Below, piece after piece: positions 5,374-36,495 of a DNA stretch of 41,238 nt; position 1 is the stretch's first letter, and the number at the start of each line of letters is the position of its first letter. Location: the NCBI GenBank assembly GCA_038231275.1, contig JBBRLQ010000049.1, forward strand, positions 1-41,238, given 5' to 3'. The position numbers and the translations under genes were made by a program. The stretch comes from Polyangiales bacterium (GTDB lineage: Bacteria > Myxococcota_A > Polyangia > Polyangiales > Polyangiaceae). The notes under the pieces were generated by a model that searched no databases, was not told the DNA's origin, and worked only from the letters and a program-made list of their open reading frames with translations.

Positions 5374-6378
5374 TTGGCGCCCCCCTCCACGCTTCCCCGC
5401 ACTCGCCTCCCTTGGATCGCGCTCGCGCTCGGCGTGTTCGTGCTCGGCGCCGGTGCGGCGCGCTATGCGTGCTCGGGAACTGAGCGTCAGCTCGACACCG
5501 TAGGCCCGCCCGAACCGAAGGCGCCGATCGTGGCGTGGTGCGCGGAAGGCCTCGAGCCCGTGCCCGGCGGAGGTTGCTTTGCGCCTGCGCGTTCGGGCAC
5601 ACCGCGACCGGCGCCGCTGCTCGTCTACCTGCATGGACGCTTCGAGCACGCCGCACCGAAGGAAGAGCTCGACCGTCAGAAGCGCGTCGCGGAGCGCGCA
5701 ACGGCCCGTGGAGTCTCCGTTCTCGCGCTTCGAGGAAAAGAAGGGCAGTGCCTGCAGCCGGAGCTCGCGAGCTGGGTGTGCTGGCCGGCGAGCGAGCGGA
5801 GCGTCGACGCAGGGCCGTCCTTCGTCGCGTCGTGGTCGCCTTCCCTGGCGGAGGCAGAGGCGCGGACCGGCAAAGGGAAGCGCTACGTCCTCGGCTTCTC
5901 GAGCGGCGGCTTTTTCGCGGTGATCGTGGCGACGCGCGCCCTCCTCGACGCCGACGCGTTCGCGATCGCCGGCGCGGGACCGATCGAGCCGACGCACGCC
6001 CTAGGCGCGAAACCGCCGATGCTCCTCTTGTCGTCCGACGACGATCCGTCACAGCCCGGGATGTTCCAGCTGAAGGACGAGCTCACGCGCGAGGGCTGGC
6101 CGCACGACACGATTTCGCGCGACGGCGTGCACGAGCTCATGACGCCCGACATCGACGCGGCGCTCACCTTCTTCGTGCGCGCGGCGACCGAGAAGCTGCC
6201 GCTCCATCCGCCGCTCTCTACGCACGTGCCGCGCCCCCACGACCCGAGCGCGCACGACGCGAGCATGCACGACCCGAGCATGCTCGACGCGAGCACGCAC
6301 GACGCGAGCATGCACGACGCCGGCATGCACCACGCCGCGCCGTTCGAAGCCGACGCGGAGACGACGAACCCTTACTGA
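5374..6378 (+). CDS. Exported alpha/beta-hydrolase (esterase-like) with His/Met-rich C-terminal repeats
   Basis: N-terminal hydrophobic segment; VYLHG; nucleophile GFSSGG; candidate Asp (SSDDD) and His (GVHEL). Start uncertain. Confidence 0.75.
   Translation: MAPPSTLPRTRLPWIALALGVFVLGAGAARYACSGTERQLDTVGPPEPKAPIVAWCAEGLEPVPGGGCFAPARSGTPRPAPLLVYLHGRFEHAAPKEELDRQKRVAERATARGVSVLALRGKEGQCLQPELASWVCWPASERSVDAGPSFVASWSPSLAEAEARTGKGKRYVLGFSSGGFFAVIVATRALLDADAFAIAGAGPIEPTHALGAKPPMLLLSSDDDPSQPGMFQLKDELTREGWPHDTISRDGVHELMTPDIDAALTFFVRAATEKLPLHPPLSTHVPRPHDPSAHDASMHDPSMLDASTHDASMHDAGMHHAAPFEADAETTNPY
6238..6330 (+). repeat. 15-bp coding tandem repeat, about 6 copies (HDPSA/HDASM/HDPSM/LDAST/HDASM/HDAGM)
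   Basis: cacgac(c/g)cgagc(atg/gcg/acg) units seen directly. Confidence 0.9.
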
Positions 6379-7388
6379 GCCGGTCGAAGGCTCTCGAACG
6401 TGCGGCGCAGCGCCTCGTCGGTCGGCACGATCGGCGACCAGCCGATCGACTTGATCTTCGCGTTCTCGAAGCGGTTGCCCTTCCACGCCGTCTTCGTCTT
6501 GTACGGCGTGAAGACGGCGGGGAGCTGGCCGCGCGAGAACGTGTGGTACTTCGCCACCGCGTGCGAGAGCGCCGTCAGCGCAGGGTACGGCACGCGCACC
6601 GAGCGAACGGGCTTCACGTCGCGCTTGTACCGAGACAGGTACGCGGCGGCGCTCAGGAGATCGTCGTCCACGACGTTGTAGACCTCACCGACCGCGCGCG
6701 GTGACTGGCCCGCGACGACGATCGCGTCCGCGCAGTTCTCCACGAACGTGAGCGGCAGCGCGTTGTCGCCGCCGAGGTGAAGGAACACGCCGAAGAGGTT
6801 CAGGCCAACGCGCGTCGACATCGCCGGGCCATTGGGGCCGTAGATGACGCCGGGGCGCAGGACGACGACGGGGACGTTCCGCTTCTCCGCGTACTCCCAG
6901 ACCAGCTGCTCTTGCTTCAGCTTGCTCTGCGCGTACGGATCGCGCAGCTCGGGGTAAGCCTCGAGCGGGGTGCGCTCGTCGACGAGGGTTCCGCGCGGCG
7001 CGTCGGCGACGCCGTACACCGCGAAGGAGCTGCAGAGCACGATCTTGGGCGGCTTGGGTCGCGCCGCGGCGGCCTCGAGGAGGTTCCGCGCGGTGACCAC
7101 GGTGCCGAGGAACATGTCGGCCGCCGCGCCGCTCATCGCCGCGGCGAGGTGGTAAATCGTGTCGCATCCTTCGATGACGCGCGCCGCTTCTTCACGCGTG
7201 GCGAGGCTGCCGGCGCGGACCTCGACCTTCGCCCCCTTGGCGGCGTCGCTCTTCAGGACGGCGTCGAGGCGCGCGCGCTTGCTGCCCGAACGGAGCAGGA
7301 GCACCAGATCGCGCTCGCCGCGCGCGAGGAGGCGCTCGACGACGGAGACGCCCAAGAACCCGTTGCAGCCGGTGACGAGGACGCTCAT
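6372..7388 (-). CDS. NAD-dependent epimerase/dehydratase (extended SDR)
   Basis: TGCNGFLG Rossmann motif; HLAA; SSFAVYG; YAQSK (YxxxK); RPGVIYGP. Confidence 0.92.
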   Translation of the reverse strand: MSVLVTGCNGFLGVSVVERLLARGERDLVLLLRSGSKRARLDAVLKSDAAKGAKVEVRAGSLATREEAARVIEGCDTIYHLAAAMSGAAADMFLGTVVTARNLLEAAAARPKPPKIVLCSSFAVYGVADAPRGTLVDERTPLEAYPELRDPYAQSKLKQEQLVWEYAEKRNVPVVVLRPGVIYGPNGPAMSTRVGLNLFGVFLHLGGDNALPLTFVENCADAIVVAGQSPRAVGEVYNVVDDDLLSAAAYLSRYKRDVKPVRSVRVPYPALTALSHAVAKYHTFSRGQLPAVFTPYKTKTAWKGNRFENAKIKSIGWSPIVPTDEALRRTFESLRPAQ

Positions 7389-8482
7389 CGCACGACCTCC
7401 TTGGCAGGGACAGCGCTCGTCTGCGCGAAGATGTCATCCATCCACTTCGACACCCGCAAGATCTCCGCGTACGGAATCGGCGGCGCGCTGCCGGCGTGGA
7501 TCGCCTCGTAATAGCGGCGGAACAAGTAGTTGAGGCCCGAGAAGAAGTGGAACTCGCTCTTCGCGAATTTGCGCGCGTTGCGCGTGCCCGCCTGCGCGTA
7601 CTGGCGGGCCATCTCGAACGCCGGGATGAGGCGCCCGATCGCGCTCGGCAACTTCGCCGGCGCCTCCAGCGTCACGGTGCGCGCCGCAAAATCCGCGTGC
7701 ACGACGTTCTTGGTCCCGAAGACGCGCACGTAGTGCGGCGGCGGACGGACGTGCGACGAGAACGTGCAGTACGAGGTGACGCTCTTGCCCTGGATCATCA
7801 CGCGGAGCTCGTCGGCCATCTGATCGCGCGCGTCGCCGAAGCGCTGCGGGCGGCGCACCGAGCCGCTCGCGATCACCTTCGCGTCGTCGTCGCCGATGAA
7901 CTCGACCACCTTGTTCAGGAGGTGATCGATGTTGTTGTGGAACAGCTTGCCCGGGAGCCGATGCACCCAATGCGCCGGATCGCCGAGGATCGCCGCGCCG
8001 AACGGGCCGGCGAGGTTGTAGCCGAAGAACGACTCGACGTGGACGACGTCCCCGATTTCGCCGCTGCGAATCAGATCGCGCATCTCGAGCGCCGGCGGGT
8101 CGAAGAGGTACGTGTAGCCGATCGTGAGGACCTTCTTCGCCTCCTGCACCTTGGCGACGAGCTTCTTCGAGTCCTCGAAATTCATCGTGAGCGGCTTCTC
8201 GACGTACACGTGCGCGCCCGCCTCGAGCGAGCGCATCGCAAGCGCGAGGTGCGAGCCGGGCGGCGTCGTGATGTGCACGACGTCGGGCTTCTTCTCGGCG
8301 AGGAGGCGATCAAAATCGGTCGTGAAGTAGTCGAGCCGGTACCGCATCGCGATCTGCTCGGCCATGATCGGCTCGATGTCGCATACGCCCACGACCTGGG
8401 CGAGCTCCGGCATCTTCTGGATCTCTTCGATGTGTCCGTCGGCGATTTTTCCGCACCCGACGATGGCAACGCGCAAGGACAT
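7385..8482 (-). CDS. Gfo/Idh/MocA family oxidoreductase
   Basis: VAIVGCGKIA; ITTPPGSH; HVYVEKP. Its stop overlaps the epimerase start (ATGA). Confidence 0.92.
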   Translation of the reverse strand: MSLRVAIVGCGKIADGHIEEIQKMPELAQVVGVCDIEPIMAEQIAMRYRLDYFTTDFDRLLAEKKPDVVHITTPPGSHLALAMRSLEAGAHVYVEKPLTMNFEDSKKLVAKVQEAKKVLTIGYTYLFDPPALEMRDLIRSGEIGDVVHVESFFGYNLAGPFGAAILGDPAHWVHRLPGKLFHNNIDHLLNKVVEFIGDDDAKVIASGSVRRPQRFGDARDQMADELRVMIQGKSVTSYCTFSSHVRPPPHYVRVFGTKNVVHADFAARTVTLEAPAKLPSAIGRLIPAFEMARQYAQAGTRNARKFAKSEFHFFSGLNYLFRRYYEAIHAGSAPPIPYAEILRVSKWMDDIFAQTSAVPAKEVVR

Positions 8483-13080: not shown

Positions 13081-13479
13081 AGTGACCTCTTCCAGATGGC
13101 AGTGACGGCAGTTATCGCGTTTGTCTTTTTTGATCGGACGAGCCGCTACGTACGATCGCGGGTGACGAACCTTTTTTTCGCCAACCACACGTTTCGTCCC
13201 GAGAGCATGAACGCGTTGCCAGTGCCGGGGAGGCCTACAGCTACGAGTCGATTCGCCGGAAACGGTGACGTGACGAGGGCAGCATAGCGCATTTCGACAA
13301 AAAGGCGAGGGACCCTTGCGCCCTCCCGAGGCCCGGATGCGCGGCGAAACGGCTGCGTTTTGCGCGCTACGGCGAGCCGACGCGTGCTCGTTCGGCAGAC
13401 GTTTGGAGGGACCGCGGGAGACCTCGGAATCGGGCGGCGTCGAAGATCTTTTGCTCGGCGCCGCCGTAGAACAGTTCTG

Positions 13480-14952
13480 ATGCTGGTCAGAAAGGTCGCG
13501 CTGTGGGCTGCGTTCGGGGTGATCGCGTCGAGCGCCGGCGCGATGGCCATCCCAGTCCCGTCGAGCACCCGCGCCGCCGAGCTCGAGCTGGGGCCCGAGC
13601 CCAAGATCAAGACCGATCTCTCGCACTTCACCGCCGGCCAGACGCTCCAGATGGACGGCCGGCTCGGTCACGCGACGGTCGCGCAGAACGGCGCGGGCGA
13701 GACGTACTTCTTCGCGTCGGTCACCGGCAACGCGCCCGCCGGCGTGAGCGCGCCGCCGCTGAACCTCGCGATCGTCATCGACCGCTCGGGGTCGATGAAG
13801 GGCGATCGCATCTCGAACGCCATCGCCGCGGCGGTCGGCATGGTCGATCGCATGCGCGAGGGGGACAGCGTCGCGATCGTGAGCTTCGACACGGAGGCCA
13901 CGCTGGTGGTGCCGCCGACGTTGACGAAGGCCACGACGCGCGCGTCGATCGATGCGGCCATCCGTTCCATTCGCCTCGGCGGCGACACGTGCGTCTCGTG
14001 CGGGCTCGACGAGGGGATGCGCCAGCTCGATCGGACGTCGCTCGGGAACGATCGCGTCAACCGGATGATCCTGCTCTCCGACGGGGCGACCAACCACGGC
14101 GTGCGCGATCTGCCGGGCCTGCGCGGCATGGCGGGCAGGATGCGCGATCGCGGGATCACGATCTCGACGATCGGCGTCGACGTCGACTTCGACGAGCGCG
14201 TGATGACGGCGATCGCGTCGGAGGCCAACGGGCAGCACTACTTCGTGGAGTCGCCGAGCGGCCTCGCCGCGGTGTTCTCGCGCGAGTTCGACGATCTGCT
14301 CGCGTCGATCGCGAGCGACACGGAGCTCGCGATCGATCTGCCGGCGGGGGTCGTCGTCGATCAGGTGTTCGATCGCCCGTTCCGCACCGAGGGTTCGCGC
14401 GTCATCGTCCCGTTCGGGACGTTCAGCGCGAAAGAAGAGAAGACGGTGCTCATGAAGCTCCGCGTCCCGTCGGCGACGCTCGGCGTGCAGCCGGCCCTCG
14501 ACGCGAAGCTCACGTACCGCGATCTCTCGACGCAGACGGCCGGCCTGTGCTCGGGCGCGCTCGCCGTCGTTGTCACGGGTGACGCGAACGCCGCTCAAAA
14601 AGACCTGGATCCGTTCGTCGCGACGCGCCTCGAGCGCAGCCGCACCGCGCAGACGCTCGCCGAGGTGAACCGTCTGTTCGAGGCCGGCCAGGTCACCACC
14701 GCCCTCGCGCGGCTCAAGGACCAAGAGGACAACCTCGCGAAGACCGAGGCCCTGACGCGCCGCGCTCCGCCGCGCCCTGCCGCGCTGCACACGCGGCCGA
14801 TCGACGAGGACTTGAAGCAGCAGCGCGTCGCCGTTCAGAACGCGGGCGCGAGCATCGCACCGCCGAAGGCGCCGGCACCTGCGCCGAGCTCGCGCGCGGG
14901 CAAGGTGTCGCGCAAAGAGAACGAGCTGGAGAAGCTCGACTTCTGGCGCTGA
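13480..14952 (+). CDS. Secreted vWA-domain protein (YfbK/CLCA-homolog type)
   Basis: Signal peptide; PLNLAIVIDRSGSM (MIDAS); LLSDG; ISTIGV. Confidence 0.88.
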   Translation: MLVRKVALWAAFGVIASSAGAMAIPVPSSTRAAELELGPEPKIKTDLSHFTAGQTLQMDGRLGHATVAQNGAGETYFFASVTGNAPAGVSAPPLNLAIVIDRSGSMKGDRISNAIAAAVGMVDRMREGDSVAIVSFDTEATLVVPPTLTKATTRASIDAAIRSIRLGGDTCVSCGLDEGMRQLDRTSLGNDRVNRMILLSDGATNHGVRDLPGLRGMAGRMRDRGITISTIGVDVDFDERVMTAIASEANGQHYFVESPSGLAAVFSREFDDLLASIASDTELAIDLPAGVVVDQVFDRPFRTEGSRVIVPFGTFSAKEEKTVLMKLRVPSATLGVQPALDAKLTYRDLSTQTAGLCSGALAVVVTGDANAAQKDLDPFVATRLERSRTAQTLAEVNRLFEAGQVTTALARLKDQEDNLAKTEALTRRAPPRPAALHTRPIDEDLKQQRVAVQNAGASIAPPKAPAPAPSSRAGKVSRKENELEKLDFWR

Positions 14953-16171: not shown

Positions 16172-16282
16172 CCCGCGGCTCGCGTGTGTAAGCTCGGGCG
16201 GGCGTGGGCGTTTTAGAGCGGAGGTCGTTGGCCTGGAACGGGCCGACGACCAGAGCGACCCACTAGAAGGGGAGAGACACCG

Positions 16283-19200
16283 ATGCTCAGCCGTTCGCTT
16301 CGCACGCGTCACGTCGCACCGTTCGTTCTGTTCGTGGGGGCGGTCGCCGGATGCGGCGCCGAGAGCCGATCGCGAAACGCGCCTTCCGCGACCGCGATGG
16401 ACTCGGTGCCGCCCGGCTACCCGCAGATGGAGCCGGGCTCCGGAGGCGCGGCGCCGTCGCCGATGTCCGCGGCCGAGGCGAAGAAGGCCGACGACGCGTC
16501 GCCCAAGAAGCCGGAAGAGACGACGTGGAAGCGCTCGCAGGTCGCCGCGAACGCGACGCGCCTCATGGTCGGCGAGCGCGAAGAGCTGCCGCTCCGGACG
16601 ATGCAGGCCAACGTCACGATCGACGGCTTTCGCGCCCGCGTTCTCATCGACTACGTCTACGACAACGATCGCGATCGGCAGCTCGAGGGGACGTTCCAGC
16701 TGCGGTTGCCGGAGGAGGCGTCGCCGTATTTCTTCGCGTTCGGGGAGAGCACGTTCGAGGCGAAGGCGGCGACGAACGCACCGAGCCCGCAGCCGCTTTT
16801 TTTTGCGGTGGCCGAGACGAAGAAGATGGGCGACGGGCCGCTCGAGATCATGACGGAACGGCAAGCGACGTGGATCCACCCGCGCGAGGCGCGGATGGTG
16901 CCGCGCGAGAAGGCGGCGTTCGCGTACGGCGAGACGGTCCGGCGGCGCGTCGATCCGGCGCTCATGGAATGGGCGGGCGCAGGGGTCTTCAGCGCGCGCG
17001 TCTTCCCGCTCGCGGCGCACAAGCTGCATCGCATCGTCGTTGGGTACGATCTGGATCTCACCCGAATCGGGGATGATCTCGAGGTCCGGTTCGACGTCCC
17101 CGAGAAGGCGCCGCGGGCCGTCGTTGACGTGCGCGTGGCCAAGCTCGCCAACGTCGCGACGCAGACGACGCCGCAAGCGACCGCCACGACCGACGAGAAG
17201 CGGCAGTACTTCCACTTCGAGAACCCCAAGGAGCACGCGGTGAGCGTGCGATTGAAGTCACCCGGCGCGCCTGTGATCGTCGGCAGCGACGCCAAGACCG
17301 GCGACTACTTCGCCGCGCAAGTGAAGCCGAATCTCCCTGCCGGCGCGCCGTCGACGACGAGCGACAGCGCGGTCTTCTTGCTCGACACGTCGCTCAGCTC
17401 GAGCCCCGATCGCTTCAACGTGTGGCTGAAGATGATGCGCACGGTGCTCGACGCGAATCGGCCCTCGCTGAAGCGCTTCGCGGTCCTCACCTTCGGCGTC
17501 GACGCGCGCTGGTACAAGCCCGGCTTCGTCGAGAACACGCCGGCCAACGTCGACGCGCTCCTCGGCGCGGCGGGGAACCTCGCGCTCGAAGGGGCGACGG
17601 ACCTCGGCGCGGCGCTGAAAGAGGCGAGCCGACCCGCGTGGCTCGACGCAAACGGCGGCGGCGCGCGGCGCTACGATCTGTTCCTCTTGTCGGACGGCGC
17701 GGCGACGTGGGGCGAAGGAAATCTCTACGCGCTCGGACGAACGCTCGCGTCGGGCAGCGCGGGCAGCTTGTTCGCGTACCAGACGGGGCTCGCGGGCACG
17801 GACGTCGCGGCTCTCACGCACCTCGCGAGGGAGAGCGGCGGCGCGGTGTTCTCGGTGACGGGGGAGTCCGAAATCGTGCGCGCGGCGACGGCACATCGCG
17901 CGCGGCCGTGGCAGCTCGTGTCGGCGAAGGTCGGCGGCGGGACCGACGTGCTCTTGGCAGGGCGGCCGAAGGCGATCTTCGCCGGGCAGACGCTCCTCGC
18001 GGTCGGTCGCGGCGCGATCCCGGCAGGCTCCGATCTCGTCCTCACGCTCGAGCGCGACGGGCAGAAAGAGACCGTGAAGACCAAGCTCGGCGCGCCGGTC
18101 GCGTCGAAGCTCGCGCCGCGCGCGTACGGTCAAGTCGCCACGAGCCAGCTCGAGGAGCTCGAGGCCGCGACCGAGAGCGTGTCCAAGGCGTACGCGACGC
18201 ACTTTCGCGTGACCGGTCGCACGTGCTCGCTGCTCATGCTCGAGACCGAGCAGGACTACGAACGCTTCGCGATCCGCCCTGAAGAAGACGCGTTCGTCGT
18301 GAAGGGAACGCCGGCGGGAGAGTTGTTCGCGACGACGTTGAAGCAGACGTACGACACGCTCGGCGATCCGAAGGCGTCGTTCTTCGCGCTCCTCGCCAAG
18401 CTAGAAAAGACGCCGGGCGTGAAGCTCCAGGTGCCGGCGTCGTACAAGATGGCGGTGACGCAAATGCCGGCGTCGTCGTTCGCGGTCGACGCCGCCGCGC
18501 TCACGACGAAGCTGAACGACAAGAAGCAGCTCTCCCCTGCCCTCCTCGACAACCTCGCGAAGCACCAGCTCGACTACGATCGGATCTCCGACGACGCGAA
18601 GGCGCGGCTGGCGCAAGGTGGCCCGGGTGACGCGCTGAAGGCGTTGTCGTCGCTCGTCGAGGAGAACCCTGGCGACGCGGTGCTCGCGCGCGACGTCGGC
18701 TTCTCGGCGATGGACCTCGGGCTTCGTCCGCAGGCCTACCACTTGTTCCGGCGCGTCGCCGACGTGCGCCCGTACGAGCCGCAGACCTACCGCGCGATGG
18801 CGCAGGCGCTTGCGGCGATGGGCAAGACGGATCTCGCGCTCGCGTACTACGAGATTCCGCTCATCGGCGAGTGGGATCCGCGCTTCGGCGATCTGCGCGC
18901 GATCGTCGAGCTCGACTACCTCCGCTTCCTCCGCACGATCGCGAGCGGCGCGGCGAAGACGAGCGTGCCGGACTACGCCAAGGCGCGCCTCGAGACGCTC
19001 GCCGGGAAAATCGGCATGAAGAGCGCCGATCTCGTCGTCACCATCACCTGGAACACCGACAACACCGACGTCGATCTCCACGTGACTGAGCCGTCGGGCG
19101 AGGAGTGCTTCTACAGCCACCGCCAGACGCGCAGCGGCGGCGAGCTCACGCGCGACGTGACGCAGGGCTACGGCCCCGAGATGTTCGTACTGAAGCGCGC

Positions 19201-19390
19201 GCCCTCCGGCCGCTACCTCGTGCGCGCGCACTACTACGCCTCGGACCGCAACCGGGCGAGCGCGCGCACGAAGGTGTACGTCACGACCTACGAAGACTGG
19301 GGCACGCCGCGCGAGCGCGCGACGGAGAAGGTCGTCACGCTCGAGACCGGCAAACAGATGCACGACATCGCGGTCATCGACCGCAAGTAG
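16283..19390 (+). CDS. Large lipoprotein with VIT-like, vWA, TPR-like and YfaP/DUF2135-like domains
   Basis: Lipobox VAGC; LEGTFQLRLP; FLLDTSLS; LLSDG; helical repeats; ITWNTDNTDVDLHVTEP and DVTQGYGPE. Confidence 0.82.
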   Translation: MLSRSLRTRHVAPFVLFVGAVAGCGAESRSRNAPSATAMDSVPPGYPQMEPGSGGAAPSPMSAAEAKKADDASPKKPEETTWKRSQVAANATRLMVGEREELPLRTMQANVTIDGFRARVLIDYVYDNDRDRQLEGTFQLRLPEEASPYFFAFGESTFEAKAATNAPSPQPLFFAVAETKKMGDGPLEIMTERQATWIHPREARMVPREKAAFAYGETVRRRVDPALMEWAGAGVFSARVFPLAAHKLHRIVVGYDLDLTRIGDDLEVRFDVPEKAPRAVVDVRVAKLANVATQTTPQATATTDEKRQYFHFENPKEHAVSVRLKSPGAPVIVGSDAKTGDYFAAQVKPNLPAGAPSTTSDSAVFLLDTSLSSSPDRFNVWLKMMRTVLDANRPSLKRFAVLTFGVDARWYKPGFVENTPANVDALLGAAGNLALEGATDLGAALKEASRPAWLDANGGGARRYDLFLLSDGAATWGEGNLYALGRTLASGSAGSLFAYQTGLAGTDVAALTHLARESGGAVFSVTGESEIVRAATAHRARPWQLVSAKVGGGTDVLLAGRPKAIFAGQTLLAVGRGAIPAGSDLVLTLERDGQKETVKTKLGAPVASKLAPRAYGQVATSQLEELEAATESVSKAYATHFRVTGRTCSLLMLETEQDYERFAIRPEEDAFVVKGTPAGELFATTLKQTYDTLGDPKASFFALLAKLEKTPGVKLQVPASYKMAVTQMPASSFAVDAAALTTKLNDKKQLSPALLDNLAKHQLDYDRISDDAKARLAQGGPGDALKALSSLVEENPGDAVLARDVGFSAMDLGLRPQAYHLFRRVADVRPYEPQTYRAMAQALAAMGKTDLALAYYEIPLIGEWDPRFGDLRAIVELDYLRFLRTIASGAAKTSVPDYAKARLETLAGKIGMKSADLVVTITWNTDNTDVDLHVTEPSGEECFYSHRQTRSGGELTRDVTQGYGPEMFVLKRAPSGRYLVRAHYYASDRNRASARTKVYVTTYEDWGTPRERATEKVVTLETGKQMHDIAVIDRK

Positions 19391-29212: not shown

Positions 29213-29839
29213 TTACCGAGGATTCTTGAAGGACGACGCGGCCGCGCGGACCTTGGCGACGATCTCGGCGGGCGACGCGCGATCGGTCATGTTCTCGCCG
29301 ATCTGCTTCCAGAGGATGGCGCGATCTTGGGAGACGATGAAGACGGCGGGCACTGCGATATCGCGCCCCTCCATCGCCACGCCGTACGCGGCGGCCACGT
29401 GCAGATCGGCGTCGCCGAGGAGGCGGAAGTGGAGATCGAGCTCCTTGGCGAGCTTCACCGACTCGTCGGCGGCGTCGACGCTGATGGCGACGAGGCTACC
29501 GCCCTGCGCTTCGATCTCTCCGCGAACACTCTCCAGCTGCCCGAGCTGGCGGCGACAGAAGGGTCACCAGAAGCCGCGGTAGAAGACGAGGACCGCGGGC
29601 CCGCGTGCGGTGAGCGCGGCGAGGGTGGTGGTGGCGCCGCTCTGATCCTCGAGAGAAAAATCCGGCGCGTGCGCGGTGGCCACGACCGATCCCGCGCGGC
29701 GCGATATCGGCTTGTACACACCGATCGCGACGACGATCGCGAGGAGGGCGACGATGCCGAAGATCGCGAGCGCGATGATCCGGAGGACGCGCCGCTTTCG
29801 CGGTTTCTTCGGCGGCGTTTCGGCGGCGTCGGTCGTCAC
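29213..29839 (-). CDS. Membrane-anchored peroxiredoxin-like (AhpC/TSA) selenoprotein with UxxC motif; TGA at 29564-29566 read as Sec
   Basis: Track ORFs 29564..30211 and 29213..29458 are in the same frame. Read-through gives APDFSLEDQSG...VLVFYRGFW-U-PFCRRQL...VAISVD...AVPAVFIV. A hairpin follows the TGA. Confidence 0.85.
29533..29549 (-). promoter_or_regulatory. Putative bacterial SECIS hairpin CCAGCU-CGGGC-AGCUGG
   Basis: 6-bp perfect stem starting 14 nt after the in-frame UGA, with a G-containing apical loop. Confidence 0.65.
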
Positions 29840-29871: not shown

Positions 29872-31407
29872 TCAGGCGAAGAGATCGGCGACCTTGCGCG
29901 CGTCGCCGGCTTCCATCGCTGCTTCGACCTCGAGGCTGAGCGAGTCGTCGCCGACCGTCGCCACCGCGAGCACGCGCCCTGCGCGCTCGAAGGCCGCGGC
30001 GTACTTTCCGGACGCAAGCGTGCCGCGCGTACGGATCTTGTCCCACCCCTCGGCGTGCCCGACGTAGTTGATGGTGGTGTCGTAGTGCGCGCTCCAGAAG
30101 AAGGGCACGTCGCGGAAAGGAGCGCCGTCGCCGAGCATCGCGCGCGCGACCGCTTGGCCTTGGCGCTCCGCGTAGGCCCAGTGCTCGATGCGGACGAGCG
30201 CGCCCGACCATGCCTCGGGCAAGCGCGCGATGTCGCCCGCCGCGTACACGCCTTCCGCGCTGGTGCGCAGCTTCTCGTCGACGACAACGCCGCGGTCCAC
30301 CCGAAGCCCCGCGTTCTCCGCGAGCGCGACGTTGGGCGTGACGCCGACGCCGAGCACCACGAAGTCGGCGGCGAGGCGCGTCCCGCTCTCGAGCACGACC
30401 GCGTCGTCGGGGATCTGCGACGGCTTCTGCTCCATGTGGAACCGCACGCCGTTCTTTTCGTGCAGCGCCTTCACGAAGGCGCCGATCTCGTCGCCGACGA
30501 CGCGCGCGAGCGGGATCTTCTCTGCTCCCACGACATCCACCTCGACGCCTCGCGCGCGGAGCGACGCCGCGACCTCGAGCCCGATGAAGCTCGCGCCGAT
30601 CACGACCGCGCGCGCTCCGCTCGTTGCTTTCGCGACGATCGCGCGCGAGTCGGCGAGCGTGCGGAGGACGAAGACGTTCGCAGACTCCGCGCCCGGCACG
30701 TCGAGCGTTCGCGGAGCGGATCCGGTCGCGAGGAGGAGCGCGCCGTATGCGAGGCGTCGTCCGCTCGTCAAGGTCACGCTCTGCGCGTTCGTGTCGAGCA
30801 GCGCCGCCGCGTCCCCCATCACGAGCTCCACGCCGTGCTCGCGATAGAACGCCGCGTCACGCAGCGGAATCCACTCCTCCGGCGCCTTCCCCGCGAGGTA
30901 GTCCTTCGAGAGGTTCGGCCGATCGACGGGCCCGGGCGGCTCATCGGCGACGAGCGCGATCGCCCCCACGTACCCGAGACGACGCAGCCCCTCCGCGCAT
31001 GCCGCCCCCGCCGCGCCGCCGCCGACGATGACGACCGAGCTCGGCCCCTTCGCCGCGCCCGGCTTCTCGTCCACGCGCTTCTTCCCGACGCGCACGAGCG
31101 CTCCCGCGCGCACGACCTCGAAGCACGCGAGCGGCGTCAGCGCCGGCGCCGCCGCGCGCCCCGTCGCGAGATCGAAGCACGCGTGGTGCCACGGACAACG
31201 CACGGTGCCGCCCACGACGAGCCCCTCCGCGAGCGGCCCCGAATAATGCGTGCAGGTTGCACTCGTCGCGTGCACGGCCTCGCCGACGCGCACGAGCATC
31301 ACGGCCTCGCCGCCCGCGTGCCCGAGGAGCGGCCGCCCCTCTTCGAGCCTGCTCGCGTCGACCCCCGCGGACAGATCCGGCCCCGTCAGCTCCGCTGCTT
31401 GCCCCAT
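29872..31407 (-). CDS. Rieske [2Fe-2S]-fused FAD-dependent NAD(P)H oxidoreductase (AIFM3/ferredoxin-reductase-like)
   Basis: CTHYSGPL and CPWHHACF (Rieske); IVGGGAAG; DRPNLSK; IGASFIGLE; YAAGD; VPFFWS. Confidence 0.92.
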   Translation of the reverse strand: MGQAAELTGPDLSAGVDASRLEEGRPLLGHAGGEAVMLVRVGEAVHATSATCTHYSGPLAEGLVVGGTVRCPWHHACFDLATGRAAAPALTPLACFEVVRAGALVRVGKKRVDEKPGAAKGPSSVVIVGGGAAGAACAEGLRRLGYVGAIALVADEPPGPVDRPNLSKDYLAGKAPEEWIPLRDAAFYREHGVELVMGDAAALLDTNAQSVTLTSGRRLAYGALLLATGSAPRTLDVPGAESANVFVLRTLADSRAIVAKATSGARAVVIGASFIGLEVAASLRARGVEVDVVGAEKIPLARVVGDEIGAFVKALHEKNGVRFHMEQKPSQIPDDAVVLESGTRLAADFVVLGVGVTPNVALAENAGLRVDRGVVVDEKLRTSAEGVYAAGDIARLPEAWSGALVRIEHWAYAERQGQAVARAMLGDGAPFRDVPFFWSAHYDTTINYVGHAEGWDKIRTRGTLASGKYAAAFERAGRVLAVATVGDDSLSLEVEAAMEAGDARKVADLFA

Positions 31408-31460
31408 GCGCCACTCCTGCGCCGCGTGGAGACCCGCGTCAAGAGTGGCTTTTCCAGGGG

Positions 31461-31489
31461 TTGTGCGCTCCGTCGCGCGGTCTTATGTT
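31461..31489 (+). promoter_or_regulatory. Sigma70 promoter of ssrA, TTGTGC-N17-TATGTT
   Basis: 17-nt spacer; 23 nt upstream of the mature tmRNA 5' end. Confidence 0.55.
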
Positions 31490-31512: not shown

Positions 31513-31873
<361 letters not shown>

Positions 31874-35517: not shown

Positions 35518-36270
35518 CTATTTCGTCAGCTTTGCGGCATCGATCGCCGCCAGGATCTGCTCCGTCGACGGCCGCACCGTGTACGTCGGATCGGAGTGCG
35601 CCCACCGGACGCGGCCGGTGGTGTCGATGAGAAAGAGCGCCGGAATGGCGATGACGTGGTGTGTCTTGCCGGAGTGGGCCTCGAGATCGACGCCGTACCC
35701 TTTGTACTTTGCGTACTCGGCGGCATCGAGGTGCTTCGCGACCTTGAATCCGTCGATGAACGCGAGACGGTCGTCGCTCAAGACAGGAAACGGAATCGTG
35801 AACGTCGCGTTGGTCTTCGCTTCGTTCTCCGGCGTGTCGACGCTGACTGCGACGGGCGTGACGCCGCGCTTCGTGTACTCGCCATAGGCTTTCACGAGTG
35901 AGTGGATTTCGAAATTGCAGTACGGGCACCATCCGCCACGATAAAACGCCAGCAGCACGGGCCCCTTCGCATACAACGTCGACAGCGCGATCTCCTTACC
36001 GTCGAGGTCCTTCGCGTGGGCGTCCGGGACGCGTTCGCCGACGGGGATGCCGGTGCCTGGCGCGAGGACGCCAACGGTCGTCGGAACCGTTGTCTCCTTC
36101 CACGCCGGCGGAGCGCTGCTCGCCGGCGCAGACGCGGAGGCCGGCGGAGCGGTGCTCGCCGGCGCAGACGCGGAGGCCCGAGGCGCGCCGCCCGATCCGC
36201 GATCGCATGCGGCCAGCGAGAGACTCGCCGCGAGAAGACAAGCAACGAGTGGTTTGCACGTGACGATCAT
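35518..36270 (-). CDS. Peroxiredoxin-like (AhpC/TSA) lipoprotein, CxxC type
   Basis: Lipobox LAAC; FYRGGWCPYC; VAVSVD; FPVLSD; IPALFLID. Start uncertain (36270 or 36306). Confidence 0.88.
   Translation of the reverse strand: MIVTCKPLVACLLAASLSLAACDRGSGGAPRASASAPASTAPPASASAPASSAPPAWKETTVPTTVGVLAPGTGIPVGERVPDAHAKDLDGKEIALSTLYAKGPVLLAFYRGGWCPYCNFEIHSLVKAYGEYTKRGVTPVAVSVDTPENEAKTNATFTIPFPVLSDDRLAFIDGFKVAKHLDAAEYAKYKGYGVDLEAHSGKTHHVIAIPALFLIDTTGRVRWAHSDPTYTVRPSTEQILAAIDAAKLTK
36104..36175 (-). repeat. 36-bp tandem duplication (2 copies, 1 mismatch) in the Ala/Ser/Pro linker
   Basis: gccggcggagcg(c/g)tgctcgccggcgcagacgcggag seen twice in tandem. Confidence 0.85.
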
Positions 36271-36495
36271 CTCCGCGCATACGCAGGCCGCGCCAAACGG
36301 TTTCATACTGCTGAGGCGGTTTCCCTAAAGCGCCGGGAGACCGCTCCTCTGACGGGGAGTCGCATGTTTCGTGGGGCCATCCTTCGCACAAAAGCTTCGT
36401 CTCCGCGGTGCCGCGCGTCCCGGTTCGTGATGCGGCCCGCGGCAGGCGTTCCCACGCAGCACCCGAGGCGCCCGCGGATCGCGCAGCATCCGGCA

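Follow-up and report, generated by a model that had tools for sequence, protein, structure and literature searches.

The stretch of DNA analysed here, referred to as the window, comprises 41,238 nucleotides (nt) of contig JBBRLQ010000049.1 from a Polyangiales bacterium. Its minus strand carries, between 29839 and 29213, a gene which very probably encodes one selenoprotein of 208 residues with a peroxiredoxin-like (Prx-like) domain and is neither a pair of fragments nor a pseudogene. It starts with a GTG (29839..29837), includes 208 codons of which one is the presumed selenocysteine (Sec) UGA, and ends with a TAA (29215..29213). A single in-frame TGA (29566..29564, minus strand) occurs in a frame otherwise devoid of stops. 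Translation and alignment both place this TGA at residue 92, the first position of a U-x-x-C redox motif. It is flanked by TGG (Trp91) and by CCC TTC TGT (Pro-Phe-Cys95), giving the motif FYRGFW-TGA-PFC, and translation of TGA as U yields a 208-residue product including ...AVLVFYRGFW-U-PFCRRQLGQL... The second redox residue of the motif, Cys95 (TGT, 29555..29557), aligns with the peroxidatic Cys of BCP in the alignments with 2cx3 and 5epf and is invariant in all of the 33 sequences described below. A previous reading of the sequence alone had proposed a hidden selenoprotein at this location on the basis of a TGA lying exactly at the first redox Cys position, a frame continuing uninterrupted to 29213 and a perfect 6-bp hairpin with loop CGGGC situated 14 nt after the UGA (29549..29533). 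Each of these features is indeed present. The proposal itself gains support from the correspondence of Cys and TGA among homologs, the conservation of the TGA, purifying selection and the resemblance of the hairpin to bacterial selenocysteine insertion sequences (bSECIS).

The two parts of the gene have the same composition. The GC content at third codon positions, 0.87 in the part preceding the TGA and 0.86 in the part following it, matches that of the other genes in this 69% GC window. The Pfam profile AhpC-TSA (PF00578) matches residues 56-175, with the TGA inside the match (E = 2.5e-26; 92.5 bits for a gathering cut-off of 26), and the Redoxin profile (PF08534) is also found (E = 3e-19). 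Together, the two matches extend across the TGA from residue 56 to residue 186 (29282..29674, minus strand) and delimit a thioredoxin-fold domain also recognized by AlphaFold2 and Foldseek. The window includes a paralog (35518..36306, minus strand) whose motif, FYRGGW-C-PYC, has a Cys at the Sec position. This paralog starts with a lipoprotein-type signal (LSLAAC), and its AhpC/TSA domain follows an Ala/Ser/Pro-rich linker carrying two copies of a SASAPAS[TS]APPA repeat. A scan for TGA codons with 60 open coding-like codons on each side retrieved the Prx-like gene together with a few junctions lacking a redox motif. A TGA at position 6376 of the plus strand (context ...TTNPY-TGA-AGRRL...) shows coding-like composition on both sides and no redox motif. 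It probably corresponds to the junction of two open reading frames (ORFs) in the same frame or to the antisense shadow of the gene located at 6372-7433 (minus strand).

Related loci were collected by one profile scan of genome contigs using an alignment of database relatives as query. This identified 33 loci in metagenome-assembled genomes (MAGs) of Polyangiaceae and other Myxococcales, in five cultured Polyangium strains (P. fumosum DSM 14668, P. jinanense SDU13 and strains 6x1, 15x6 and y55x31) and in Enhygromyxa salina. Of these loci, 32 have TGA at the aligned codon: the strict motif recognized 28, and 4 more have a Met or Ile after the TGA. Neither TAA, TAG nor a sense codon occupies the Sec position in any of the 33. 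The remaining locus (L033, 3177-3392) is a 72-residue C-terminal remnant of a second gene copy from the same MAG as L010. It lacks the upstream half. The 33 sequences of our alignments include the window. An IS66-family transposase gene (L033, 6-1532) lies on the same contig as this remnant. Protein identity between the TGA-bearing loci and the window ranges from 41 to 77%. A sequencing error or a recent mutation cannot recur at one codon across lineages this distant, and the divergence of the loci also excludes a single contaminating sequence at the origin of all of them. The conservation of the TGA in 32 of 33 loci, together with the presence of a hairpin at the same offset in all 33 sequences, exceeds what is expected by chance.

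Database entries provide a complementary picture. In a set of 5.8 billion proteins, the best full-length match among proteins of similar length is 57% identical to the window protein (P0003) and is recorded with a Cys at the site. Among shorter proteins, 71 matches were obtained, of which 42 were retrieved. In these 42, all N-terminal pieces (11 examples) terminate at ...FYRG[FY]W and many C-terminal pieces share 60-94% identity with the window protein. The nearest database relatives thus appear cut at one codon, because the N-terminal pieces all end at this motif and the C-terminal pieces are closer to the window protein than any full-length entry. The window gene is no exception: the public gene call P0123 (91 aa) corresponds to its N-terminal piece, with an identical start and an end at the TGA. 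The column corresponding to Sec in 30 full-length database homologs (alignment A5) contains Cys in 26 cases, Ser in 3 and Gly in 1. The sequence-only reading had recommended looking for a correspondence between Cys and TGA in homologs and had noted that annotation pipelines often split such genes. Both were confirmed, the former by Cys in 26 of 30 distant homologs facing TGA in 32 of 33 loci, the latter by P0123 and by the C-terminal pieces filed separately.

Alignment of the 33 sequences revealed no frameshift in any of them. Twelve residues are invariant before the TGA and 21 after, including Cys95, Gln98, Leu99, Ser120, Asp122, Asp143, Pro164, Asp186 and Arg187. Comparison of the window with L001, its nearest relative, by the Nei-Gojobori method gives a pN of 0.145 and a pS of 0.415 downstream of the TGA, and a pN of 0.149 and a pS of 0.487 upstream. 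In 19 close pairs (downstream pN < 0.12), the downstream pN/pS lies between 0.11 and 0.45. The argument was built on these close pairs because synonymous sites over all pairs are near saturation and GC-biased. Purifying selection acts on both halves of the gene. Relaxed selection downstream of the TGA, which the sequence-only reading had named as an outcome contradicting it, is not observed in these pairs. In the window, TGA terminates 15 of the 20 complete called genes of at least 150 aa. The same is true in the loci for 171 of 234 complete genes, and among the 33 Prx-like genes themselves for 22. A reassigned genetic code is thus excluded since TGA is an ordinary stop in these genomes.

The candidate SECIS hairpin (29533..29549, minus strand) has the sequence CCAGCU-CGGGC-AGCUGG, with a 5' arm at 29549..29544, a loop at 29543..29539 and a 3' arm at 29538..29533. 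It begins 14 nt past the UGA, the distance from UGA to loop being 20 nt. Perfect hairpins of at least 6 bp, with a loop of 3-7 nt and starting 8-20 nt downstream, are found at 3.3% of window positions, and hairpins of this type (at least 6 bp, perfect) follow 16 of the 738 TGA trinucleotides in the window. The hairpin alone is therefore weak evidence, given this chance rate and a folding no better than that of shuffled sequences (see below). Its behavior was analyzed in an alignment of 57 columns and 33 sequences without indels. RNAalifold, unaided, retrieved from these sequences a 7-bp helix (columns 24-30 and 34-40) with a 3-nt loop, which is the same helix as the window hairpin. Its position is kept in all 33 sequences and four of its pairs show no variation at all. 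At pair 27:37, 27 sequences have G-C, 4 have A-U and 2 have G-U, and the pair is never broken. It associates the third base of a Gln codon (CAG/CAA) with the first base of a Leu codon (CTG/TTG), which makes either change synonymous. At pair 30:34, 17 sequences have C-G and 7 have G-C, and the remaining 9, the window among them, carry a mismatch which widens the loop to 5 nt. The covariation score is 0.137, compared to 0.063 for column shuffles (none of 500 reaches 0.137) and at most 0.065 with slid partners, and 87.9% of cells are paired compared to 15-49% with slid partners, bearing in mind that kinship alone can exceed shuffles without any structure and that the A-U pairs may reflect one or two events.

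The published bacterial SECIS model (PMC13188914) combines a 3-9 nt loop and a 4-16 bp stem with a G in loop positions 1-2, a distance of 16-37 nt from the UGA and a minimum free energy not above -7.5 kcal/mol. All 33 sequences agree with the model in loop, stem, G position and spacing, which is 20-21 nt. The energy of the 17-nt core is within the limit in 23 of the 33, which therefore agree with the model for all constraints. With the extra lower pairs available in its 47-nt context, the window hairpin reaches -13.3 kcal/mol. The hairpin coincides with the codons of a conserved peptide, Q-L-G-E/Q-L (Q-L-G-Q-L in the window). Its conservation, with compensatory changes, supports its assignment as a putative SECIS of the bacterial type.

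Several observations weigh against a selenoprotein. Compared with its dinucleotide shuffles, the 47-nt segment of the window shows no better folding (z = +1.08), and 174 of the 200 equal or surpass it. Thermodynamic stability, non-significant in the window, was consequently discarded as an argument for the hairpin. With -7.4 kcal/mol, the 17-nt core of the window marginally misses the limit of the bSECIS model. Moreover, because the hairpin overlaps Q-L-G-E/Q-L, its nucleotide conservation results in part from constraints on the protein. Over all pairs, the NG86 dN/dS ratio is only moderately low, with a median of 0.52 downstream and 0.43 upstream. The Sec machinery was not encountered either. 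Neither a tRNA-Sec (the only Rfam match is a tmRNA) nor selA, selB or selD (Pfam search of 28 ORFs) was found in the window, ARAGORN detected no tRNA-Sec in the 33 loci, and NCBIfam models detected no SelA, SelB or SelD in 107 flank proteins of 250-800 aa, taken from 121 representatives of at least 250 aa. The window and flanks are small parts of their genomes and these absences are uninformative, yet the machinery remains unseen. In addition, a Pfam search of 32 neighbor representatives identified no redox partner (CcdA, DsbD or thioredoxin reductase). Finally, Peng et al. 2016 list Sorangium cellulosum So ce56, which belongs to the same family, as having neither SelD nor the Sec trait. Their list gives two other species as Sec-positive, Haliangium ochraceum with 3 selenoproteins and Plesiocystis pacifica with 6. 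The Sec trait is thus present in the class without being universal.

The AlphaFold2 model of the protein, obtained with a 60-sequence alignment, has a pLDDT of 91.2. Sec92 is located between a strand (residues 82-86) and a helix (residues 93-104), so that the UxxC motif stands at the start of the first helix of the thioredoxin fold. A Foldseek search with the domain (E 1e-14 to 1e-12) identified BcpB, Bcp4, AhpE and PrxQ as the nearest structures, with ResA lower in the list. The domain therefore has a thioredoxin fold of the peroxiredoxin type. Entries 5epf and 3hjp (BcpB, Bcp4) and 4x1u, 1xvw and 1xxu (AhpE) reach TM-scores on the target of 0.83-0.89, and those from Aeropyrum pernix (PrxQ/BCP, 4gqf and 2cx3) reach 0.75-0.78. 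The closest solved sequences are 2cx3 (1.5e-12) and 5epf (3.9e-11). In the HMMER alignment with the BCP 2cx3, the segment F-F-P-A-A-F-S-P-V-C stands over F-Y-R-G-F-W-U-P-F-C. The peroxiredoxin signature P-x-x-x-T/S-x-x-C is not conserved with respect to 2cx3 and 5epf: Arg88 is found in place of Pro and Sec92 in place of Thr/Ser, while Cys95 corresponds to the peroxidatic Cys. The catalytic Arg of peroxiredoxins precedes a strand of the type ..F(I/V)(I/V)D. The Arg of K-R-A-V-F-I-V in 2cx3 aligns with Pro164 of V-P-A-V-F-I-V, a residue invariant in the 33 orthologs, and the alignment with 5epf shows the Arg as an insertion beside Pro164. The catalytic Arg of canonical peroxiredoxins therefore appears to be replaced by Pro164, if the Pro, Thr/Ser, Cys and Arg positions of BCP are, as we assume, those of the catalytic residues. 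A W-[C/U]-x-x-C motif associated with a conserved Pro is the pattern of thioredoxin, ResA and TlpA. As judged from these alignments, the active site would be of the thioredoxin/ResA/TlpA type carried by a peroxiredoxin scaffold. The term peroxiredoxin-like, used in the sequence-only reading, thus remains appropriate for the fold but not for the peroxidase signature residues, which are replaced.

A thiol:disulfide oxidoreductase chemistry is likely because of the W-U-P-F-C site and of the conserved Pro occupying the place of the catalytic Arg. Thiol:disulfide exchange would thus be more likely than reduction of peroxides. The opposite possibility, a selenoprotein acting as a true peroxidase (a Sec-peroxiredoxin), is rather unlikely without being negligible. 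The nearest solved structures, BcpB, Bcp4, AhpE and PrxQ, are all peroxiredoxins, and selenols react rapidly with peroxides. However, three positions of 2cx3 are changed (Pro to Arg88, Thr/Ser to Sec92 and Arg to the invariant Pro164) and models of ResA and TlpA match as well, below their family cut-offs. The combination of W-U-P-F-C with a conserved Pro, which we take to be a thioredoxin/ResA/TlpA pattern, also argues against a peroxidase.

For the preferred reading, a selenoprotein with oxidoreductase activity, the following scheme can be proposed. Translation would start at GTG 29839 and the UGA at codon 92 would be decoded as selenocysteine by SelB and Sec-tRNA(Sec), recruited by the hairpin present in the Q-L-G-Q-L codons 14 nt past the UGA. 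The K/R-rich stretch and the hydrophobic helix which follows would anchor the protein in the inner membrane and expose the redox domain outside the cytoplasm, a location that most orthologs would reach as lipoproteins. The Sec92 selenolate would attack an oxidized substrate, which may be a disulfide, a sulfenic acid or possibly a peroxide. Cys95 would then resolve the adduct to form a selenenylsulfide, and an electron donor would re-reduce the center.

Recoding of the UGA to a residue other than Sec is very improbable. It would imply insertion of Cys by a tRNA-Sec-like tRNA with SelB, or near-cognate read-through to Trp or Cys. Cys insertion by a tRNA-Sec-like tRNA with SelB has been reported for some Actinobacteria. 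The So ce56 entry without SelD in Peng et al. 2016 and the fact that the Sec machinery of the source genome was not seen in the stretches examined would be compatible with such a recoding. So would P0004, a metagenomic protein from a 948-nt contig (50% identity to the window protein) recorded with Trp at the site (FYRGFW-W-TYC). On the other hand, the hairpin fits the SelB-dependent bSECIS model and lies at the canonical distance, the family is known to include both Sec and Cys forms, and Haliangium ochraceum and Plesiocystis pacifica are listed as Sec-positive in the same study. As for the Trp of P0004, it could equally be a TGA read under another code: among its close relatives, L010 and L013 have a TGA at the site and P0149 is a split C-terminal fragment. 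Either the gene caller translated a TGA as Trp here or the variant is genuine, with a TGG codon.

It is hardly credible that the gene produces two functional polypeptides, a membrane-anchored N-terminal product of 91 residues and a C-terminal product with its own initiation. Gene callers do find C-terminal starts, such as the GTG at 29458, a possible start of the C-terminal piece picked in the window. However, a stop at the UGA would fall inside the redox motif and separate the first beta-strand from the active-site helix of what is one thioredoxin-fold domain. Furthermore, the starts of the C-terminal fragments vary from locus to locus (lengths of 48-107 aa), the stretch between the UGA and these starts is conserved at the protein level, including the invariant Cys95, Gln98 and Leu99, and the stop is invariably TGA, never TAA or TAG. 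Finally, the idea of a dead gene or of a sequencing error, in which a Cys codon (TGC or TGT) was mutated or misread to TGA, would agree with the splitting of the gene by public callers (P0123), with the separate naming of the C-terminal pieces by NCBI and JGI (as "redoxin domain-containing protein" or "peroxiredoxin") and with the lack of Sec machinery in the window, loci and flanks examined. It can practically be dismissed, since all 32 full-length orthologs, which come from independent assemblies and include those of five cultured Polyangium and of Enhygromyxa salina, have this TGA, and the frame downstream is intact in each of them and under purifying selection.

The N-terminal region of the selenoprotein (29717..29839, minus strand) includes a K/R-rich stretch (KKPRKRR, residues 10-17) and a hydrophobic segment, modelled by AlphaFold2 as a helix at residues 15-39. 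The orthologs can be divided into two groups according to this region. Six of the 33 sequences (the window, L001-L004 and L006) have the K/R-rich stretch followed by a hydrophobic helix without Cys. The other 27 (L005 and L007-L032) have a short signal ending in a Cys about 10 residues before the mature domain, and 22 of these 27 fit the strict lipobox pattern. The type of anchor has thus been swapped within the family, the region concerned lying some 45-80 codons before the TGA. With either form, the redox domain is predicted to lie outside the cytoplasm. The periplasmic location suggested by the sequence-only reading is in this way supported indirectly, by the modelled helix and by the lipoprotein-type Cys signal of the 27 orthologs.

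The gene located 32 nt upstream, in the same direction (29872..31482, minus strand), encodes a ferredoxin-reductase-like protein combining a Rieske [2Fe-2S] domain with an FAD/NAD(P) pyridine-nucleotide-disulfide oxidoreductase domain. There is no Rieske gene at the syntenic place in L001, where a tmRNA gene directly adjoins the Prx-like gene. Any link between the Rieske gene and the selenoprotein would consequently be restricted to the window genome. Clustering of 356 called ORFs showed that synteny is limited to Polyangium. The window also carries a tmRNA gene (31513-31873, plus strand) with the tag ANDNAIALAA, which is identical in L001 (1928-2288). In L001, a phage-type integrase gene (738-1892) adjoins the tmRNA gene, as at a tmRNA integration site. 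Further away, two genes for large von Willebrand factor A (vWA) domain proteins (13288-14949 and 16217-19387, both plus strand) flank a zinc-type alcohol dehydrogenase gene. The second of these proteins carries additional VIT, TPR and DUF2135 domains. Both vWA genes are unrelated to the selenoprotein.

A broader interpretation, for which we see the chances as evenly balanced, is that a group of aerobic soil predators, the Polyangiaceae and their relatives, holds an ancient clade of envelope selenoproteins anchored by a lipid or by a transmembrane (TM) helix. The change from Cys to Sec would have occurred once and would have been kept in every sampled genome, and the location of the SECIS within the Q-L-G-E/Q-L codons would have led to co-evolution of protein and RNA constraints. 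If so, the Sec trait would be widespread in Polyangiaceae in spite of the Sec-less Sorangium cellulosum, and a selenol-based reductase would operate outside the cytoplasm in Polyangiaceae and their relatives. The predicted selenoprotein by itself would mean Sec decoding in Polyangium and related myxobacteria, even though So ce56, of the best-known species in the family, is listed as Sec-negative. From a practical point of view, the gene is present as fragments in at least 33 genomes and in dozens of metagenomic entries, under names such as "peroxiredoxin", "redoxin domain-containing protein", "SCO1/SenC family" or "hypothetical protein". Recognition of the Sec codon would mend these annotations. 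The hairpin also provides a compact natural candidate SECIS which overlaps a conserved peptide and shows synonymous compensation (CAA with TTG), a case that could help SECIS models.

Prx-like thiol:disulfide oxidoreductases (PF00578; UxxC or UxxU) are an established bacterial selenoprotein family, predicted computationally. Members were described in Geobacter, Syntrophus and Desulfotalea (Zhang et al. 2006, PMC1794560), as "Prx-like 1" with 225 Sec forms and 2,740 Cys forms in marine metagenomes of the GOS study (PMC2398784), and in 28 organisms (Peng et al. 2016). The Prx-like UxxC family also appears in a table of a 2026 review. No publication on selenoproteins of Polyangiaceae or myxobacteria was found, judging by titles. 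By the two features stated for the family, PF00578 and UxxC, the window gene would be one of its members. What is new here is an entire unannotated clade from Polyangiaceae within this already known family, and with it a predicted exported and membrane-tethered member of the UxxC Prx-like selenoproteins. The window protein shares with Prx-like 1 the PF00578 domain, a UxxC motif with Sec in first position and abundant Cys homologs. It differs in that its clade is limited, in our contig scan, to Polyangiaceae, other Myxococcales and Enhygromyxa, in the presence of an export/anchor signal (TM helix or lipoprotein-type), and in a signature of its own, FYRGxW-U-x-[FY]-C ... GVAM.G..IA.P.

Among NCBIfam models, the best match is the SelL-related redox protein NF040769 (E = 8e-18), related to fish selenoprotein L, with which the window protein has in common a Prx-like fold and a redox center of the CxxC/UxxC type. 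However, it is not a member of NF040769 by the NCBI criterion since the match scores 64.7 bits for a cut-off of 120 and covers residues 57-154 only. The N-terminal membrane anchor, the thioredoxin-fold domain with a predicted extracytoplasmic location and the motif of the W-C-x-x-C type are reminiscent of ResA, TlpA and DsbE/CcmG. In contrast to these proteins, Sec replaces Cys, the scaffold is nearer to those of BCP and AhpE, and no cytochrome-maturation or CcdA/DsbD gene lies near the window gene. Scores with the corresponding models are also below their cut-offs (58.6 for 170 with the ResA model PRK03147, 27.2 for 123.15 with DsbE and 30.3 for 230 with TlpA). With the BCP/PrxQ and AhpE peroxiredoxins, the overall fold is common whereas the signature Pro, Thr/Ser and Arg are replaced. 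Finally, Sec is located three residues ahead of the peroxidatic Cys position, unlike in the TxxU Sec-peroxiredoxins.

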